Below are positions 3,294-40,112 of a stretch of DNA of 41,048 bases, one piece after another. The position numbers were made by a program, and so were the translations under genes. The stretch comes from a virus (taxonomy: Duplodnaviria; Caudoviricetes). The notes beneath the pieces were generated by a model that did no database searches, was not told the origin of the DNA, and saw only the letters and a list, made by a program, of their open reading frames with translations. Numbering within the stretch: position 1 is the first letter of the stretch; each line of letters opens with the position of its first letter. Where the stretch lies: the IMG/VR virus record IMGVR_UViG_3300032301_000472, positions 1 through 41,048 of that record; one strand, given 5' to 3'.

Positions 3294-3938
3294 TTAACCG
3301 TTCTTTCGGAAGCGGCGGATGCGATTCTTCTCCTGGCGCCAACGCTGCTGGGCGCTCATGGCAAGGTTGTTCATGCCAAGTGCGGTGACGTCTGAGTTGC
3401 CAGATCCCACCTGCCACTGCTGGAATTGTGCTCGGTCAAACGTAAGCATCGACAGTGATTCTGCCTCAACGAACACCTTGACTGCGTTCGCAGCGGTGAC
3501 GTCCAGGTTGGTAATGGAGGTTGTCTGTGCGGTGTTGATCTGCGTCCAGTCTCCGTAGCCAAAGATCTTTAGGGTTCCCTGACCGACAGCGAGGGTGTAA
3601 CGCGTCGGCAGGTACAAGACACCACCGTGGATTTCCCACCCAGAGTCTGGTCCTTCGCCGTTTGCTGGGTAAACTGTCTCTCGGTACTTTGAGTCGTTAT
3701 CGTAAACGTCCACTCGGATTGGCCAGGACACGTTAGTTAGGGCAACGGTGAACGCAGATCCGTTGATTGGCTGCGTAAACGCAACCGAGTCGATGGTCTC
3801 GCTTGGGTACACGCCGCCGATGGCGTCAATGCCACGGTTAATCAGTTCGCCAATTTGGGCGTCTGACCACGTCGTTCCGTTAGGGTCACGGAGCGACAGC
3901 CTCAGCGAGGTGAGAAGGCTTGAAAATGTGGTGCTCAT
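3294..3938 (-). CDS. Head-tail adaptor/connector protein
   Basis: N-terminal 'LRLSLRDP...WSDAQIGELINRG' is typical of phage adaptor proteins; lies downstream of the capsid gene. Confidence 0.6.
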   Translation of the reverse strand: MSTTFSSLLTSLRLSLRDPNGTTWSDAQIGELINRGIDAIGGVYPSETIDSVAFTQPINGSAFTVALTNVSWPIRVDVYDNDSKYRETVYPANGEGPDSGWEIHGGVLYLPTRYTLAVGQGTLKIFGYGDWTQINTAQTTSITNLDVTAANAVKVFVEAESLSMLTFDRAQFQQWQVGSGNSDVTALGMNNLAMSAQQRWRQEKNRIRRFRKNG

Positions 3939-5167
3939 GCGATCTTGGCTCCTTTTCCTTTATTCTCGGCTGCCCATTTGAAGGCGTCAGCCCATTCCTT
4001 TGCTCGATCCTTGTAGTGGTATTCCTTGAGGACTCGCTCTCGTGCGGACCCAGCCAGTTGCTCTCGCAGATCCTTGCTGCGTGTTAGTTTCTTCATCGCT
4101 TCGTACCACTCGCCACGACCACGGGCAAGGAGTCCGTCGACTCCGTCTCGAACAACCTCGTAAGGTCCACCGTTACGCATTCGTTCTCCGATGAACGCAC
4201 CGCCAACCATGGCGTATTCCAGCCAGTGAAGTTCTGACTTGGCTTGGTCGAAGACGTCACCCATAAGCGGCGCAATGCCGATGTCTGGGTGGCTGTTTGC
4301 AAGCGTCTCGCAGAACTTAGCGATACCCTCTACGTAGAGAACCTGCTCGTCGAAGAGGGGAGCAATAAAGTGTTCGGTTCCAGGATTGGTTCCAATGAAG
4401 ACGCGAGTCATCTCTTTCTTGAGATCCTCTACGGCCTTTCCAGCGTATCCGCCGATAATCTTTCCGCGTGGACCTTCTGGGTATCCAGCGTAGTCGCGGA
4501 TGCGAGCGGTGCTACCGTAGTACACCATTCGTGGCTTGTCGCCCGCTGGGCGTTCGGTGGTTGCCTTGTAGAGTTCTGGGTCAATGGCGTTGCGGATGAC
4601 CCTAATGTTGTCGTTGAATCTCGAATAACGATTGCCAATGACATCCGTTGACGTCGTTACCAAGTCGGCACGCTTGGCCATCTCCTCAATCATCACCAGT
4701 TCTGGAATAACGTCTTTCTTGTATCCGTTCCAGTCCTTGATGTTGAAATGGTCGTCGTCAGTTTCGTAGACAATTGCCTTGTCGTGGGCAGCAAATCTAA
4801 ATGCTGGCCAGAGGAGCCGCGTAATAAGATCGCGCTCTTTCCATCCGTGTGGGTGGTCAATGGCTTCTTGGTATGAGAATGTGACAAACGGACAAGTTTC
4901 TTCTTTGCAGCAAAGCGTAGTGTTGTAGTACCTGCGGAAGACGACGACGTCAGCCCAGTCAACTTCCGTAGAATCAAATTCGATGAAGCCCTTGTTGAAC
5001 GCCTCTGGCATTAGCATTTTTTCGCCGCCAGGCTTCACGTTGAAGTTGACTTTATTTAGACCCCTGTATTCGACTCCGAGTTTCTTGAGTTCCTCGGTGA
5101 ACTGGTGCCCACGGAAGTAGGCGCAAGGACCGTCCTCGACGTGTCCCCAAACTAGGACTTTCAGCAT
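3935..5167 (-). CDS. Glycosyltransferase (GT-B fold, GT4-like)
   Basis: 'ADVVVFRR', 'VYETDDD', 'ADLVTTST', 'VIRNAID', 'DIGIAPL...AKSELHWLEYAMVG', 'VRDGVDGLL'. Confidence 0.85.
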   Translation of the reverse strand: MLKVLVWGHVEDGPCAYFRGHQFTEELKKLGVEYRGLNKVNFNVKPGGEKMLMPEAFNKGFIEFDSTEVDWADVVVFRRYYNTTLCCKEETCPFVTFSYQEAIDHPHGWKERDLITRLLWPAFRFAAHDKAIVYETDDDHFNIKDWNGYKKDVIPELVMIEEMAKRADLVTTSTDVIGNRYSRFNDNIRVIRNAIDPELYKATTERPAGDKPRMVYYGSTARIRDYAGYPEGPRGKIIGGYAGKAVEDLKKEMTRVFIGTNPGTEHFIAPLFDEQVLYVEGIAKFCETLANSHPDIGIAPLMGDVFDQAKSELHWLEYAMVGGAFIGERMRNGGPYEVVRDGVDGLLARGRGEWYEAMKKLTRSKDLREQLAGSARERVLKEYHYKDRAKEWADAFKWAAENKGKGAKIA

Positions 5168-26395: not shown

Positions 26396-26450
26396 GTGAT
26401 AGTCAATAAATGATAGTAACCTTATGATAGGCGATTGTTACATTGTTACA
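26396..26450 (+). repeat. AT-rich cassette copy 1 (3x TGATAG + TTGTTACA repeats)
   Basis: GTGATAGTCAATAAATGATAGTAACCTTATGATAG...TTGTTACATTGTTACA. Confidence 0.85.
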
Positions 26451-26495
26451 TAGAACAGATGTTCTATTTGCCAATTAGAACAGATGTTCTATTTG
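26451..26495. promoter_or_regulatory. Two tandem LexA (SOS)-type boxes AGAAC-N4-GTTCT
   Basis: TAGAACAGATGTTCTA at 26451-26466 and 26476-26491, inside a 20 bp perfect direct repeat. Confidence 0.75.
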
Positions 26496-26573: not shown

Positions 26574-26821
26574 CCCCCTTGACTTTTGGAAAACCCCGCA
26601 GCGTGGCTCCTAGGTGCCTCTACGGTCAAATGCCCCAAAAGGGTGTCTGTACCCCACCCTGACCCCAAACGCCTCTCTCCGTGGCTCCTAGACCCCTGTT
26701 ATTTTCGCCGCATTGGCACCTACCAGCCACGCAGAGCCCCGTTCTCCCTCAGACCCCATAATCCCCCACCCCAGCCGAAACGCCTCTCTCCGTGGCGCAA
26801 ATCGCCTCGCTCCAGCGGGGA

Positions 26822-26890
26822 TGATAGTCAATAATGATAGTTACCTTATGATAGGATTTGTTACATGTTACATTGTTAAGAAATCTTACA
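26822..26890 (+). repeat. AT-rich cassette copy 2
   Basis: TGATAGTCAATAATGATAGTTACCTTATGATAG...TTGTTACATGTTACATTGTTAAGAAATCTTACA. Confidence 0.85.
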
Positions 26891-27070
26891 CATTGGCGTT
26901 AACATTCCGTTAACATTGATGCTTCACAATGGTCATAGACGAAGAGGAGCGATCCTCTGGGTGATGGGTGACTGACCCGTGGTGAACGGAGGCAGTCAAC
27001 CGATAAGCCCGACGATCAGGTGACTGAGACCCAGCACCTGACCGAAGAGTCCTTGGACAGATGAATAGAG

Positions 27071-27160
27071 ACCTCCAAACGAAACGGTGGGTGCATAGGC
27101 AACCCTTCAGCCCCACCGTCTGCGGACTTGTATGATCCGCACTGATGAGTAACTGGAGGT
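27071..27160 (+). ncRNA. Hammerhead ribozyme 1 (type II), predicted cleavage after C27120
   Basis: AC-GAAA-CGGTGGG...CCCACCG-TC / TGCGGA-loop-TCCGCA-CTGATGA-GT; distal ACCTCCA pairs with TGGAGGT. Confidence 0.85.
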
Positions 27161-27165
27161 TCACA

Positions 27166-27435
27166 ATGGCAGTCAAGATTATCCCGATGACGTTCGTGGT
27201 AAAGGTGCCGAAGATCTTTTGGGACGATCACGTCTCACGAGATCTGGACTTCACCTCAACGATCATCAAGGAGTCTGGTGCCTTCTATGAAGTGCTCATG
27301 ACCATTGATGCCATCAATGAGTTGTGGTCGGATGCCGACTACTACGGCAACTTCATGAAGGAGTTTGAGAACGACGGCGGTCGCTCAATCTGCGCAAGTG
27401 CTCGCGCTACGGTGCGCGCACTAGAAAACCGATAG
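27166..27435 (+). CDS. Hypothetical early protein (ribozyme cassette ORF 1)
   Basis: TGGAGGT RBS then ATG 27166 (MAVKIIP...); the track's 27145 start lies within the ribozyme core. Confidence 0.75.
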   Translation: MAVKIIPMTFVVKVPKIFWDDHVSRDLDFTSTIIKESGAFYEVLMTIDAINELWSDADYYGNFMKEFENDGGRSICASARATVRALENR

Positions 27436-27496
27436 CCGAAACTAGCCGATGCGAACGGCTAGTATGCTGGGATTGATTACCCAGCACTGATGAGGC
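27435..27496 (+). ncRNA. Hammerhead ribozyme 2 (type II), predicted cleavage after A27464
   Basis: GCC-GAAA-CTAGCCG-loop-CGGCTAG-TA / TGCTGGG-ATTGATTA-CCCAGCA-CTGATGA-GGC. Confidence 0.9.
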
Positions 27497-27523
27497 AGAT
27501 CCTCGTAACTGGAGGTACACACA

Positions 27524-27757
27524 ATGACCAACGGCAAACTGGCACTGCTGCGACTGGCAATGCGTGAGTTTGAGGGCATCTCTGCTTCGGCTGAGATGTT
27601 CATCAGCAACGCACACAACCACAGCGAGGCAGACGCTGAGATCTGGGACTTGCTCAAGAAGATCGGCGCGATCCAAGAGAAGTCCGACAAGATCCTCAAC
27701 AAGTTGTACGGCAAGACGAAGCCGTACGAAGACATTCAGATCAAGGAGATCTACTAG
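27524..27757 (+). CDS. Hypothetical early protein (ribozyme cassette ORF 2)
   Basis: GGAGG RBS, 77 aa helical protein. Confidence 0.75.
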   Translation: MTNGKLALLRLAMREFEGISASAEMFISNAHNHSEADAEIWDLLKKIGAIQEKSDKILNKLYGKTKPYEDIQIKEIY

Positions 27758-27809
27758 CCGAAACCCCTTCGGGGGTCTGGCGGGATTGATTACCCGCCAC
27801 TGACGAGGC
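27757..27809 (+). ncRNA. Hammerhead ribozyme 3 (type II), predicted cleavage after C27777
   Basis: GCC-GAAA-CCCC-TTCG-GGGG-TC / TGGCGGG-ATTGATTA-CCCGCCA-CTGACGA-GGC. Confidence 0.92.
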
Positions 27810-27835
27810 AGATCCTCACACACTGGAGGTTCACA

Positions 27836-28120
27836 ATGGACACGCTAACGAATGCGGTTCAGCCACGTGCGACTGATCGCGCGACCCTTGACCACAAGAA
27901 TGTGTGGCGGATTGCGTGCCAGATTCCCACGTGCCTTCTACCTGCAACGTGGACGTTCTTTTATGCTGATGGTGGTGCCAATCGTTATTGCCGCCACCAT
28001 GGCAACAATCGGTATGAGACTGGCGCGTATGCGACAGCCAACCATGCCCCGATCAAGGCTCCTCTTTCTGTTGACATGAAGGATGAACTTCGTGTTGACA
28101 TGGAGGCGTCAACCATCTAG
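27836..28120 (+). CDS. Hypothetical early protein, possible Zn finger (ribozyme cassette ORF 3)
   Basis: GGAGG RBS; 'CQIPTC...YCRHH'. Confidence 0.7.
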   Translation: MDTLTNAVQPRATDRATLDHKNVWRIACQIPTCLLPATWTFFYADGGANRYCRHHGNNRYETGAYATANHAPIKAPLSVDMKDELRVDMEASTI

Positions 28121-28173
28121 CCGAAACCCCTTCGGGGGTCAGCGCGGGATTGTAGCCCACGCTCTGATGAGGC
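28120..28173 (+). ncRNA. Hammerhead ribozyme 4 (type II), predicted cleavage after C28140
   Basis: GCC-GAAA-CCCC-TTCG-GGGG-TC / AGCGCGGG-ATTGTAG-CCCACGCT-CTGATGA-GGC. Confidence 0.9.
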
Positions 28174-28198
28174 AGACACCTCGCAACTGGAGGACACA

Positions 28199-28456: not shown

Positions 28457-28462
28457 CGGGAT

Positions 28463-28494
28463 CGGCGGCGGTGGGCTTCGGCTTGCCGCCGCCG
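28463..28494 (+). terminator. Strong hairpin closing the ribozyme operon (no U-tract)
   Basis: CGGCGGCGGTGGGC-TTCG-GCTTGCCGCCGCCG. Confidence 0.6.
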
Positions 28495-28575
28495 TGATAG
28501 TCAATAATGATAGAAAATCCTTATGATAGAAAATTGTTACATGTTTGTTACATGTTACATTGTTAAGAAATCTTA
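28494..28575 (+). repeat. AT-rich cassette copy 3
   Basis: GTGATAGTCAATAATGATAGAAAATCCTTATGATAG...TTGTTACA...TTGTTAAGAAATCTTA. Confidence 0.85.
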
Positions 28576-28654: not shown

Positions 28655-29275
28655 ATGAATCAGGACAGGGTAGCACTCAAGGTCTGCGCCGAAGGCGGCG
28701 AGGTAGCCAAGTGGGTTAAGCGTGACGAGACTGGCAAGCCAGTCCGTTACTTCTGCGGCAAGCACATGGGCATCCACCGTCGGATCGTCAGCAGTTGGCG
28801 CACCGACAAGTGGACGACCGAGTGGCACCAGAGCGCCATTGCTGATGCGGTTGAGATGAGCGAGGTGGAGAAAGCGGAGTCCCTGCTGAACTTCAACACA
28901 GCCAAGAAGGCTGAGGACGAGGCTCGCTGGGCTGCTTCCGAGAAGCGCGCAGAGGAGAAAAAGCGACAGGAGATTCTGAGCCAGCCAAAGTGGCTGCGGG
29001 AGCGAGTCAAGAACTTCCGCTACGAGCAGGAGAACACTAACTTCACCCGCAAGGTTGAGGTGGTGACCAGCCCGTACGGCGTACAGATTGAACTCATGAA
29101 CTGGTCGTATATCAAGTCCCGCAAGCACGCGGAGGCTCTGATCGGCGAGATCAAGTGGGCGCTCCAGAAACTAGACGAGGACACCATCAAGTGGGAGGAT
29201 GAGATGAGCGACAAGATCGTCGCCGCCGACGCGGCACTGGCAGCCCTACAGGCTGAGGAAGGGGTGGTCGCATGA
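28655..29275 (+). CDS. Hypothetical protein with N-terminal Zn-finger-like and coiled-coil regions; start MNQDR
   Basis: TGGAGG RBS before ATG 28655; 'C...YFCGKH'. Confidence 0.7.
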   Translation: MNQDRVALKVCAEGGEVAKWVKRDETGKPVRYFCGKHMGIHRRIVSSWRTDKWTTEWHQSAIADAVEMSEVEKAESLLNFNTAKKAEDEARWAASEKRAEEKKRQEILSQPKWLRERVKNFRYEQENTNFTRKVEVVTSPYGVQIELMNWSYIKSRKHAEALIGEIKWALQKLDEDTIKWEDEMSDKIVAADAALAALQAEEGVVA

Positions 29276-29471: not shown

Positions 29472-29545
29472 GTGATAGCAAATAATGATAGAAAATCCTT
29501 ATGATAGAAAATTGTTACATTGTTACATTGTTAAGAAACCTTACA
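29472..29545 (+). repeat. AT-rich cassette copy 4
   Basis: GTGATAGCAAATAATGATAGAAAATCCTTATGATAG...TTGTTACATTGTTACATTGTTAAGAAACCTTACA. Confidence 0.85.
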
Positions 29546-34931: not shown

Positions 34932-35100
34932 GGGAAACCTCCTTCAAAATTGCATTGGCAGCAGATGCTGCAATTGTGTGCGCCACCTTCGGATCGTTCA
35001 CCGTTGAGGAGATCGCCTCTAGGACATGCGCATAGATCTGGAGCCACGTCTGGGCGCCAAGTAGTGGTGCGGGCTTACGCTTTGCCCCTGGGATGCTCAT
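34921..35100 (-). CDS. 59 aa hypothetical protein
   Basis: MSIPGAKRKPAPLLGAQTWLQIY...; ATGA overlap with rmlC; not in the ORF track. Confidence 0.55.
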   Translation of the reverse strand: MSIPGAKRKPAPLLGAQTWLQIYAHVLEAISSTVNDPKVAHTIAASAANAILKEVSLGD

Positions 35101-35633
35101 TCCTGTTCCGCCGCAATCTGGTCGCCAGCACGCTTCCAGTTGGCGATGGTCTCCAAGCCTCCCTTGATGTCGAGCGACTTCTGATCCTTCTCGCTGATGA
35201 TGAGGTTCAGTCGGCTCTTCTCAATGATCTCCTGGATCTTTGGCAAACCAAGGTACGAGATCGCAATCTCGTGCTCTGGTCGGTAGACGTCGGTCGTTGC
35301 ATAGACAATGGTGCAGTCGGTCTTCGCGAGGAAGCCGCGACCCCACCACCACGGTGCGTAGAAGACCTTGCCATCACCAGCCTTGACGTCCTCGGCAATG
35401 ACCTGACCGAACAACGCCGAAGATGGGTCAAGGTTGACCGCAAAAATCGTAGCCTCGCCAGAGGCAACCCACATGGCCTTGTCCATCAAGCGCTGGGCGT
35501 GGATGCCACGGAACGTGCCGCCGATGGACCAACTCATGTTGATCTGTCGGGACTCGTAGTCCTTGAGCACCTCGCTGAAGAACCCTCGGGTATCGGTAAA
35601 TACAGAACTTTTGATAATCTGAGGCTCACTCAT
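35097..35633 (-). CDS. rmlC: dTDP-4-dehydrorhamnose 3,5-epimerase (RmlC-like)
   Basis: 'FTDTRGFFSE', 'QINMSWS', 'GTFRGIHAQ', 'ISEKD'; probable start MSEP. Confidence 0.85.
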   Translation of the reverse strand: MSEPQIIKSSVFTDTRGFFSEVLKDYESRQINMSWSIGGTFRGIHAQRLMDKAMWVASGEATIFAVNLDPSSALFGQVIAEDVKAGDGKVFYAPWWWGRGFLAKTDCTIVYATTDVYRPEHEIAISYLGLPKIQEIIEKSRLNLIISEKDQKSLDIKGGLETIANWKRAGDQIAAEQE

Positions 35634-36030
35634 TTTCTTTATCCTTTCCATACCATGAGATGAAGTCGTCAAAATCAATGACCACTAGCGCTCGGCGCTT
35701 GGCGCCAGCACCTGGAGAATCCCCGACCACTAGGATGCCCAACTGATCCGCCTTGGGGTTCAACTCCCGAAGCCACTTGTCAAGGCGCTCTGGATACGAC
35801 AGTCCGACCTTGCACTGAATCACGAAGTGCCCAGCCTCGACGTCGTTCTTGCCGCCGTACATGCCAGTGCGCTTGCCGTTCAGCCGAGCAGCGACCTCGC
35901 GCTCAAAGGCATTGCCGCGCTGACGGGCACGCTTGCCACGAAGAGATCGATGCTTTTCATACGCTTCTAGCATTTTCTTTTCTCGGTCCTGATTGGCCTC
36001 GTCAATGGCCAGGTCTTTCATCTTACCCAC
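35626..36030 (-). CDS. PD-(D/E)xK Holliday junction resolvase-like protein
   Basis: 'RQRGNAFEREVA...DV...IQCK'. Confidence 0.75.
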   Translation of the reverse strand: MGKMKDLAIDEANQDREKKMLEAYEKHRSLRGKRARQRGNAFEREVAARLNGKRTGMYGGKNDVEAGHFVIQCKVGLSYPERLDKWLRELNPKADQLGILVVGDSPGAGAKRRALVVIDFDDFISWYGKDKENE

Positions 36031-37649: not shown

Positions 37650-38317
37650 CCTCTACACTCCTTTAACCATTGGCAGCCCTTGCAGGGCCACTGCGCCTTC
37701 ATATCTCCCCCACGGGAGGGCAAGCGAGGCGGCTTACGCTTGTCATAATAATTGAGAGCCTTGAGCACACGTACCGCTCGGTCACGCCAACCCCGCTCCA
37801 AAAGGTATTCTACCATCTGGAAGTTATCTGCGCAAACGTAGACCACACGAGCCTCGTGGGGGTCACCAGTCTGCGTCTCAAGGATGTGCGCGTAGATCGA
37901 CGCCTGAATGGCGTGCTCTGGCTTTACGGTCTTGAGGTACTGCATGCCACGGCTGTTGATTGACTTGTACTCCCAGACCTCCTTGATGCCGTCCTTGCGC
38001 TCAACGACCGCGTCCGCGTTTCCTGAGAAGTTGTACTCTTCCCAGATCAGTGGCACCTCTTCGACAAACGACACGAGGTCGCCAGCCAACTCGGCTTCAC
38101 GACCAGCGCGGTTGAGCACCTCGGCGACAACGTGCCCGCGCTCGAAGACGCGGTACAGGCTGTCTGGGAACGGGTTGCTAGACTCTACGCCCTCGGCGCT
38201 GTACCACTGCTGTCGGATGCACGCACCCAGCAGGGAGCCACGCCAACGGCGTGCCGCAGGGCGCCCGACGGCAGCCTTGCGCATGAGGTGGGCATCGAGG
38301 ACCTTCGAGACGCTCAC
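37646..38317 (-). CDS. Cas4-like PD-(D/E)xK exonuclease
   Basis: 'CIRQQWY', 'GHVV', 'SGNADA...WEYKS', 'QASIY', C-terminal 'CKGCQW..C'. Confidence 0.8.
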   Translation of the reverse strand: MSVSKVLDAHLMRKAAVGRPAARRWRGSLLGACIRQQWYSAEGVESSNPFPDSLYRVFERGHVVAEVLNRAGREAELAGDLVSFVEEVPLIWEEYNFSGNADAVVERKDGIKEVWEYKSINSRGMQYLKTVKPEHAIQASIYAHILETQTGDPHEARVVYVCADNFQMVEYLLERGWRDRAVRVLKALNYYDKRKPPRLPSRGGDMKAQWPCKGCQWLKECRG

Positions 38318-39273
38318 GACCACAACTTCTTCTGGTAGAGGTCCGTACGGGTTGGCAGGTTGCCGTTGTATGCGCGTAGACACTTCTCGACCTTCCACAG
38401 GTTCTCTGGGTTATGCGTCGTCTTAAACTCGTTGTCGCGGATCTCGAGGTGGAACTTCACCTTGCTGTTGTCCATGTGGTAGTCTCGTCGGTCGCCGTCG
38501 CCCGTGCCGTACTCGACGCGTGCGTTGAGCGCCTGCCCAATGCGAGCCGCAAGATCGTAGACCGTGATGTTCTCGGAGCAGACGTTCATGATGCCATGCG
38601 CGGATGGGTTTAGGGCAGCCAAGGCAATTGCCAGCCCAGCGTCCTCGACGTTGAGGATCGGGCGGCGGGCATCTGACTTCGGCTTGATCACGCCCATGTG
38701 GATGGCTTCCCAGGCAAACGCATTGACCACGAGGTCGCGGCGCATGTTCGGAGCCTCGCCCCACAGGGTGCCAAGGCGCAGCGATACCCACGGGTGGTTC
38801 TCCTGCTTGAGGAGCCACGAGTCCGTCTGGTACTTGGTGCGAGCGTACGCGGTCAACGGGTTGACTGCGGCTTCCTCGGTCGACGGCTTGTCCCGACCAG
38901 CGCCGTAAACGGATGCCGACGAAATGTAGATGAACTTGCCCGATGGGTTCTCGTGCCAGAAGCGCTTCGCCTGAAGGATCGGCTGCTCGTAGTTCGACCA
39001 CTCCGTGTCGAAGGCGTCGAGTTCTCCGAGGTGGTCGTTGCTGACCGCAGCCAACCAGATGATGACGTCATAGGAACCGAGTGGATCCACGTCAAAGAGC
39101 CGCGAGTTTAGACCATTGCGTTCGCTGTGCGGAATGTGATCAGCGCTGAGACCCAGCATGCTGTCGACGTACCAATCCTCGTCGATGCCGTGGACGGTAA
39201 CGCCCGCCCGCTTGAGATGCTTCACCGCCGCTGGGCCAACGTACCCACGGTGACCGACCACTAGTGCCTTCAT
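38314..39273 (-). CDS. NAD-dependent nucleotide-sugar epimerase/dehydratase (extended SDR)
   Basis: 'GHRGYVG', 'SSASVYG', YxxxK 'YARTK'; start MKAL. Confidence 0.88.
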   Translation of the reverse strand: MKALVVGHRGYVGPAAVKHLKRAGVTVHGIDEDWYVDSMLGLSADHIPHSERNGLNSRLFDVDPLGSYDVIIWLAAVSNDHLGELDAFDTEWSNYEQPILQAKRFWHENPSGKFIYISSASVYGAGRDKPSTEEAAVNPLTAYARTKYQTDSWLLKQENHPWVSLRLGTLWGEAPNMRRDLVVNAFAWEAIHMGVIKPKSDARRPILNVEDAGLAIALAALNPSAHGIMNVCSENITVYDLAARIGQALNARVEYGTGDGDRRDYHMDNSKVKFHLEIRDNEFKTTHNPENLWKVEKCLRAYNGNLPTRTDLYQKKLWS

Positions 39274-40112
39274 CGCTTGATCCTTTCTTCCGCTTTTGTG
39301 CCACGGAAATATTCGTCCATCGCTTCCGTCCAGTGGCGGAGGCGTGGCAATCGCGTATTCTTCAACGCACCGTACGTCGGTCGCGTCTTGTCCCATCGCA
39401 TGGAGCCGACAATCTTCGAATTGTTACGGTTAAGTTTTCGAGCCTGACGGGCAACCTCGACCCACGTCGCTGTTCCCTCATTGACTACATGGTACACCCC
39501 TGTCGCAGCCGCGTCCTCTGCCAAGTCGATGATGACCTTCGCTGCGTCTGGCAGGTAGGAGATCCTAAAGAACTGGTCTGCTGGCAGGTCCAGTTCCTTG
39601 TACGACATGGAAGCGAAGTCTACGAAGTGCGGCTTCATCGGTGACGGGTAGACGCCGAAGGGGCTGCTAATGCGAGCCACGACGCCGCCGCGTGATAGTA
39701 CGACACGCTCGCCTTCCAACTTGGTCTGACCGTAGATGCTGAGGGCACCTCGGCTCTCCGCCTTCTCATCCAGCGTGCGTGACTCCTGGTTCTCGTCAAA
39801 GACGTAGTCTGTGCTGATGTAGATCTGGTTCGTCACTTCACCAATGATCTTGGCTAGGTCGACGTTCGCAATGTACGCGTCGTGTGGGTTCTTATCGCAC
39901 AGCGCAATGTCCCGTAACGCGGCGCAGTTGATCACTTGCTTAATCGCGTGACTACGCAGCAGGTTTGGCAAGGTCTCTGGGGTATAAGAAAACACGCCCG
40001 ACTCCCGCATAGGAGCCGAGCGTGTATAGACGACGTGCGGGATCTCCCGAGCCTTGAGTTCCGCGATAATGTGCTGGGCAACCTGCCCTGTTCCGACGAC
40101 CCCGTAATTCAT
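39270..40112 (-). CDS. rmlD: dTDP-4-dehydrorhamnose reductase (RmlD-like)
   Basis: 'GTGQV', 'INCAA', 'ISTDYVF', 'YGQTKLEGE'. Confidence 0.85.
   Translation of the reverse strand: MNYGVVGTGQVAQHIIAELKAREIPHVVYTRSAPMRESGVFSYTPETLPNLLRSHAIKQVINCAALRDIALCDKNPHDAYIANVDLAKIIGEVTNQIYISTDYVFDENQESRTLDEKAESRGALSIYGQTKLEGERVVLSRGGVVARISSPFGVYPSPMKPHFVDFASMSYKELDLPADQFFRISYLPDAAKVIIDLAEDAAATGVYHVVNEGTATWVEVARQARKLNRNNSKIVGSMRWDKTRPTYGALKNTRLPRLRHWTEAMDEYFRGTKAEERIKR

Follow-up and report, generated by a model that had tools for sequence, protein, structure and literature searches.

Why do phages put self-cleaving RNAs between their small early genes? The arrangement has been known since 2011 and the question is an open one: in the available portions of a 2019 review, the purpose or benefit of phage hammerhead cutting is still described as undefined (PMC6765202). 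Here we analyze one such array in a 41,048-base virus record (IMGVR_UViG_3300032301_000472), which is rated complete and which we refer to, over its whole length, as the window. The initial annotation of this DNA had suggested that gene units excised by the ribozymes may close into protein-coding circular mRNAs, an idea that has likewise been in print since 2011, with a negative result. Do the units show signs of such a fate?

Profile matches identify terminase, portal, major capsid and DnaB helicase genes in the window, as well as two recombination genes (an Erf-like annealing protein and a Cas4-like nuclease). A search of genome contigs for relatives of the capsid protein found none, so no host is assigned to the phage. 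Around the array, small genes on the plus strand form a block in which AT-rich promoter-like elements recur; this block is most likely the early region.

26396-26451, 26821-26888, 28494-28575 and 29472-29543: AT-rich element with TGTTAC repeats, four copies, upstream of early transcription units

These elements are likely promoter or operator blocks, and TTGACA promoter-like sites lie behind two of the four. TTGACA follows the AT-rich element in two related metagenomic arrays, L384 and L383, while other sequence occupies that place in the window (26860-26940). Elsewhere in the window, a glycosyltransferase gene adjoining the capsid gene, together with dTDP-rhamnose pathway and epimerase genes (3935-5167, 35097-35678, 38314-40112), suggests glycosylation of the virion or of the DNA.

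Three matches to the Rfam family RF02276 (Hammerhead_II) exceed the gathering cut-off of 37, at 44.0, 44.3 and 41.5 bits (27434-27504, 27756-27817 and 28119-28181, respectively). A fourth, at 27077-27158, scores 29.6 bits, below the cut-off, and has the core; this is ribozyme 1. A structural scanner also returns four motifs in the window, all on the plus strand, compared with one in total over 40 dinucleotide-shuffled windows. On the minus strand there is no Rfam ribozyme and the type II scanner gives 0 matches. The features of type II hammerheads are present, namely the CUGANGA and GAAA core, an NUH site, closed stems I and III, and an open stem II. Judging from these motifs, self-cleavage is likely at four sites, after positions 27120 (GUC), 27464 (GUA), 27777 (GUC) and 28140 (GUC), which would delimit units of 344, 313 and 363 nt. 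The array is laid out as follows:

27070..27160, plus strand: hammerhead 1 (type II), predicted cut after 27120, 2-bp stem II
27166..27435, plus strand: ORF1, 89 aa; a different ORF at the same place in L383 and L384
27435..27504, plus strand: hammerhead 2 (type II), predicted cut after 27464 (GUA), Rfam 44.0 bits
27465..27777, plus strand: unit 2, 313 nt, made of the 3′ half of ribozyme 2, a ribosome-binding site (RBS), ORF2 and the 5′ half of ribozyme 3
27524-27757, plus strand: ORF2, 77 aa; identical in L384, 44% identical in L383
27757..27817, plus strand: hammerhead 3 (type II), predicted cut after 27777 (GUC), Rfam 44.3 bits
27778..28140, plus strand: unit 3, 363 nt, made of the 3′ half of ribozyme 3, an RBS, ORF3 and the 5′ half of ribozyme 4
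27836-28120, plus strand: ORF3, 94 aa; other ORFs here in L383 and L384
28120..28181, plus strand: hammerhead 4 (type II), predicted cut after 28140 (GUC), Rfam 41.5 bits
28199..28456, plus strand: ORF4, 85 aa, last gene of the array; 94-95% identical in L383 and L384

Each motif is placed between a stop codon and the next RBS. The stop codon of each of the three enclosed ORFs lies 2 nt before GAAA (TAG-CC-GAAA) and therefore overlaps stem II, whose strands are AC/GU in ribozyme 1 and GCC/GGC in the other three. A candidate pseudoknot between loop I and the 3′ tail reaches 4 bp in ribozymes 2 and 3, one more than in ribozymes 1 and 4 (3 bp); several orthologues have 5-7 bp. Between 25000 and 32000 the repeats comprise ribozyme and RBS only, each cassette ORF matching once in the window; the 24 nt before the cut are the same in ribozymes 3 and 4 (repeat D19). 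ORF1 has no match in PHROG, Pfam or NCBIfam, and the four homologues of ORF2 are all unnamed or hypothetical. ORF4 has a ribozyme upstream only; downstream of it is a G+C-rich hairpin (about 28461-28493), read by eye and absent from the computed terminator list.

Upstream of ribozyme 1 we find a further structured RNA:

26958..27045, plus strand: two-hairpin leader RNA, conserved, predicted fold
571-682 of L384 and 1815-1925 of L383 (minus strand): counterparts of the leader RNA

Its fold has a z of -3.8, and none of 200 shuffles folds as well. An alignment of three arrays has 51 consecutive invariant columns and changes on both sides in 6 of 32 pairs; the first hairpin is nearly invariant and the compensatory changes lie in the second. 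A search of Rfam gave no match at E<=5, and blastn did not find the leader in a further related array, L327. Its position is reminiscent of phage antitermination RNAs such as put of HK022.

How well do the ends of the excised units fit each other? The initial annotation described units 2 and 3 as starting with stem I-CUGANGA-GGC and finishing with GCC-GAAA-stem III-UC, and the sequence bears this out. A motif scan likewise confirms that stem II is the same (GCC/GGC) in ribozymes 2-4, so the geometry proposed there, in which either unit can rebuild a complete chimeric hammerhead from its own two ends, is correct. It was also right that the first unit is less compatible: AC/GU against GCC/GGC leaves its chimera a single base pair, and unit 1 is incompatible in L384 as well. 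The loop I-tail pseudoknot would be retained in the chimera, since both of its strands are downstream of the cut. However, tandem hammerheads of the same type always give this chimeric geometry, and the geometry is therefore no evidence of function.

Is pairing across a unit under selection? Scanning 263 loci gave, among the matches listed, 66 distinct neighbouring ribozyme pairs 100-1500 nt apart. Pairs within one locus are not independent, one of the viral scans required GCC...GGCAG, and the scanner only picks up motifs with some native stem II and overlooks cores with an additional U. Both ribozymes have the same stem II in 43 of these 66 neighbouring pairs, compared with 12% of random pairs (24 of 38 in a less biased scan, both among the matches listed), a point on the side of circles. 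Neighbours are, however, alike in all parts: their likeness compared with that of random pairs is 0.54 against 0.28 for stem III, 0.62 against 0.35 for stem I and 0.59 against 0.32 for the tail (among the matches listed), which duplication or recombination explains. GGC/GCC is also the second commonest stem II (24 of 139 among the matches listed).

Stem II differs in the remaining 23 of the 66 pairs. Among the matches listed, the native stem has at least 2 bp in 23 of 23, a figure that owes something to how the scanner is built; the circle chimera reaches this in 13 and the reverse chimera, a control with no meaning for a circle, in 12. Compared pair by pair, again among the matches listed, the circle chimera is better than the reverse one in 8 cases, worse in 6 and tied in 9. 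When the stems are extended, the native pairing beats the circle chimera 39:16 (p 0.006, the pairs not being independent), and the circle chimera stands against the reverse chimera at 35:29 (p 0.34, or 0.29 with one pair per locus), both among the matches listed. Stem II, in other words, follows the native ribozyme and not the circle.

Folding was predicted with ViennaRNA, which leaves pseudoknots and ribosomes out of account. Adopting the chimeric fold costs the linear units 2 and 3 an estimated 2.4 and 3.1 kcal/mol, where native ribozymes 2-4 need 1.1-5.3, so the fold is feasible; that part of the circle proposal, that ligation is chemically possible, holds. Inside a circle, the hammerhead fold would cost about 4 kcal/mol in both units, and the closing pair has a probability of 0.04 and 0.01 in the two window units. 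Against shuffled interiors both are ordinary in a whole-fold test, with 31 of 60 shuffles as good for unit 2 and 38 of 60 for unit 3. In the relatives the closing pair is more frequent, at 0.61 in unit 2 of L384, 0.92 in unit 3 of L384 and 0.41 in unit 2 of L383, and these units beat 29 of 30, 30 of 30 and 27 of 30 shuffles, respectively. Over 25 of 28 eligible units among the matches listed, the whole-fold test leans towards circles (mean rank 7.3 of 19, where 9.5 is expected). A closure-only test shows no lean (mean rank 11.0 of 19 for 26 other units among the matches listed), so the whole-fold lean reflects ribozyme halves and hairpins left intact. Unit 3 of the window does beat 19 of 19 shuffles on closure alone, by about 0.9 kcal/mol, and unit 3 of L384 beats 18 of 19, while unit 2 of the window ranks 7 of 19; among the matches listed, ranks of 0 or 1 are reached by 4 of 28 units, close to the 2.8 that chance would give.

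A separate candidate, a self-inactivating hairpin between core GAGG and a CCUC tail that would block religation, was rejected as a general feature. CCUC does occur in the tail of 28 of 153 GG-type ribozymes and 1 of 105 others, but the other stem types have no matching 4-mer in the tail, and pairing of G10.1 is not above that in shuffles (0.38 versus 0.41, n=257), all among the matches listed. In the window the hairpin is predicted for ribozyme 4 (0.99) and weakly for ribozymes 2 and 3 (0.22, 0.02). We also note that contigs of one run, probably DNA, contain 12 and 6 short pieces with no back-joint, which is uninformative on circles. A 299-nt contig of low likeness joins the 3′ half of ribozyme 1, other letters and ribozyme 2, with both cut sites in genome order; this is not evidence either.

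The relatives show instead how the array changes. A pattern search of metagenomes returned four loci (L383-L386). In L384 and L383 the number and order of the ribozymes are those of the window, four in all; L385 has three and L386 one. Four more ribozymes lie in L327, part of a complete record (G051) whose capsid protein is 82-84% identical. The ORFs between the ribozymes differ in L383, L384, L385 and L327. The window and L384 have ORF2 and ORF4 in common, whereas ORF1 and ORF3 are unrelated; at both places the divergence begins just after the start codon and the sequences reconverge at the stop. Unit 2 of L384 contains a second small ORF, and units of L383 reach 737 nt. Unit 3 of L383 carries a 208-aa gene, a 42% homologue of the window gene at 28655-29275; the window gene lies outside the array behind its own promoter-like site, while its L383 homologue lies inside. 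Across four arrays the cores are intact, and stems I and III vary in sequence yet stay paired.

In the wider group, RF02276 gave no match in 50 related records (0 of 9 among the near-complete ones), with four matches in the phage's own genome; the 50 comprise 49 of 79 capsid loci, chosen mostly by length, and one further locus (L207). Neither Rfam nor the scanner matched any of thirteen stretches from the early regions of relatives, and exact patterns derived from the window found nothing in viral contigs. On these comparisons we regard the array as an accessory module: its genes can be exchanged, and the wider group can do without it.

Array sequence matches 28 Streptomyces phage records over short stretches. 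In Streptomyces phage Marav (OQ995441.1, 43441-49508) there are nine Hammerhead_II matches within 6 kb, eight of them over the cut-off, lying between small genes, and one precedes an OCR-like antirestriction gene. The strand before GAAA is GGC in seven motifs, GCC in one and CGC in one, and each pairs with its own downstream strand. Four motifs have an extra U after CUGANGA, and two stand directly behind promoter-like GTGTGATACT. The hammerheads are missing from the annotated features of the record, and a literature search for them found no report. In addition, a viral contig (L074-L077) has at least nine pattern matches in about 7 kb, a longer GCC/GGC array.

Ribozyme 1 differs from the other three in a way that bears on translation. 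Its stem II is extended by a predicted 8-bp helix (GACCUCCA/UGGAGGUU), which hides the Shine-Dalgarno sequence of ORF1. By prediction, opening the region from Shine-Dalgarno to AUG costs 14.0 kcal/mol before cleavage and 3.8 after it, and a similar drop is predicted in L384 (8.6 to 2.5) and L383 (9.8 to 2.6). The helix is also present in L327, and so occurs in four related arrays including the window. By these predictions, the cut in ribozyme 1 would switch on translation of ORF1 by removing the anti-Shine-Dalgarno strand. For ribozymes 2, 3 and 4 the RBS goes from 5.6 to 5.1, 8.0 to 4.8 and 6.1 to 6.2 kcal/mol, so the predicted opening is small or absent for ribozymes 2 and 4. As a general feature of type II hammerheads the helix was tried and rejected: among the matches listed, it occurs in 5 of 159 ribozymes, compared with 2.0 +- 1.6 in shuffles (3 of 23 first, 0 of 49 internal or last and 2 of 87 solitary ribozymes). 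It is confined to the lineage of the window array. Since this extended pairing is native, no chimera can supply it.

Compared with L384, ribozyme 1 of the window has, by alignment, a 6-nt deletion of the pseudoknot tail and a changed loop I, and its 3-bp pseudoknot compares with 5-7 bp in orthologues. Without the tail it may be slow, and it may be degraded or rely on another contact. Separately, the tails of ribozymes 3 and 4 in L383 are able to pair with the downstream RBS; the window tails are shorter versions. These L383 tails resemble the anti-Shine-Dalgarno end of 16S rRNA.

The reading that we prefer, at a probability of roughly 0.68, is that the hammerheads cut an early polycistronic transcript into linear messages and also serve as repeats at which genes are swapped. 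The four motifs would cleave the early transcript during transcription, yielding linear one-cassette messages that start with a 5′-OH hairpin and end with a hairpin and a 2′,3′-cyclic phosphate. Ends of this kind (5′-OH groups, terminal hairpins, cyclic phosphates) delay the breakdown of RNA in bacteria. With a stem II of 3 bp, the pieces would come apart once cut, so that each gene would receive a uniform 5′ end whatever its neighbour. At ORF1 the loss of the anti-Shine-Dalgarno strand would switch translation on. The repeated ribozyme and RBS sequences would be DNA recombination points for cassette swapping, a role that the Erf-like and Cas4-like recombination genes of the phage fit, and homogenization by recombination at these repeats would account for the one stem II that ribozymes 2-4 share. 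If circles form, they would be no more than a by-product.

How do other readings fare against this one? An unlikely one is that cleavage is regulated or destabilizing: with a stop codon overlapping stem II, ribosomes on the upstream ORF would keep the ribozyme from folding, cutting would follow ribosome traffic, and the outcome would be to time or shorten early gene expression, not to stabilize it. The place of the stop in all three window units fits this reading, and so does a stop triplet, in any frame, 1-5 nt before GAAA in 185 of 258 ribozymes among the matches listed (47 of 256 at a control position); glmS offers a precedent of cleavage followed by decay (PMC6765202, available portions). 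Tight packing of genes and repeats, however, explains the stop position without regulation. We think it quite improbable that the ribozymes act chiefly as DNA repeats, or travel as passengers of mobile cassettes, with RNA cleavage being incidental. The swapping of genes between ribozymes, the absence of the array from the 50 related records and the degraded look of ribozyme 1 count for such a reading, but intact cores and the maintained pairing of stems I and III count against it. Moreover, the loop-tail pseudoknot fits its own tail in 50% of 258 ribozymes and 9% of shuffled tails (among the matches listed), which argues for selection on RNA structure.

Equally doubtful are functional circular mRNAs, in which units 2 and 3 would be closed by the chimera or by a host RtcB-type ligase and the circles would be the long-lived translated form; the same doubt attaches to a variant in which the circle is protected from recutting by ribosomes that halt at stem II. 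A complete chimera at near-native cost, the frequent closing pairs of L384 and L383 and the closure-only ranks of the two unit 3s speak for it. So do the available portions of a retrozyme study (PMC7229834), in which a tertiary-stabilized hammerhead can ligate almost as well as it cleaves and RtcB circularizes 30-80% of retrozyme monomers in vitro; there, however, self-ligation gives about 1-3% circles, and a review puts hammerhead ligation at about 0.01 per min against 1 per min for cleavage (PMC12118343, available portions). RtcB and RNA_ligase profiles have no match in the phage, while the controls are positive in 10 of 14 and 6 of 14 genomes; as RtcB is known to circularize such RNAs, a host RtcB could make some circles. 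An intact ribozyme in a circle could nevertheless recut itself, and ribosomes terminating at the stop codon over stem II would open that stem. With a circle chimera no better than its reverse control, a native stem that beats it, closing pairs of at most 0.04 in the window and an incompatible unit 1, we find no sign of selection for circles in the sampled arrays, and functional circular mRNAs are unsupported. Trace circles that could be detected are, in our judgement, a roughly one-in-four prospect.

The closest known systems are the prophage clusters of Perreault 2011 (PMC3088659). In the accessible parts of that paper, several hammerheads flank a single gene or a short gene block, cleavage was seen for three such arrays in vitro and for one also in E. 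coli, and the loop I-tail pseudoknot is needed for speed. Processing into single-gene mRNAs was proposed there and circles or splicing were mentioned, but the authors found neither kind of product (data not shown in the paper). The window array is like these clusters in its type II motifs, short stem II, candidate pseudoknot and tandem order around small variable genes; unlike them, it lies in an uncultured tailed phage. The anti-Shine-Dalgarno extension of ribozyme 1 and swapping between orthologous ribozymes were not met in the accessible main text of Perreault 2011. Nor did a literature search, covering mainly the main text of open papers, find a paper showing circles from phage hammerhead arrays.

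Retrozymes (Cervera and de la Pena 2020, PMC7229834; PMC4918200; accessible parts) resemble the array in that two hammerheads free a piece of 170-400 nt with ligatable 5′-OH and cyclic phosphate ends, as we predict for the phage units. They are, however, eukaryotic repeats of one unit with type I or III hammerheads, and circles have been detected, whereas the window units hold unrelated ORFs at one locus and are of type II. The window array has no repeats of the same unit, no ribozyme on the opposite strand and, the closure rank of its unit 3 aside, no sign of selection on cross-end pairing. Ribozymes in the UTRs of fungal and plant RNA viruses (PMC13725137, accessible parts) also cleave upstream of an ORF in connection with translation, and tandem pairs enclose segments of 186-399 nt; the setting there is eukaryotic cap-independent initiation in RNA viruses, compared with a predicted bacterial Shine-Dalgarno helix in a DNA phage. 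Cleavage ahead of an RBS has a counterpart in engineering as well as in nature. RiboJ, a synthetic insulator that goes back to Lou and colleagues in 2012, reportedly uses a self-cleaving RNA before the RBS to give a uniform 5′ end; it is engineered, while a natural insulating role of the window ribozymes is what we infer.

Natural circular mRNAs from a DNA phage would, if true, be surprising, and the evidence does not favour them. The new leads from this locus are the exchange of genes between fixed ribozymes and a first ribozyme that is predicted to unmask an RBS on cutting. Why phages place self-cleaving RNAs between small early genes can now be asked in culture: Streptomyces phage Marav, with its nine motifs in 6 kb, makes the question directly testable.
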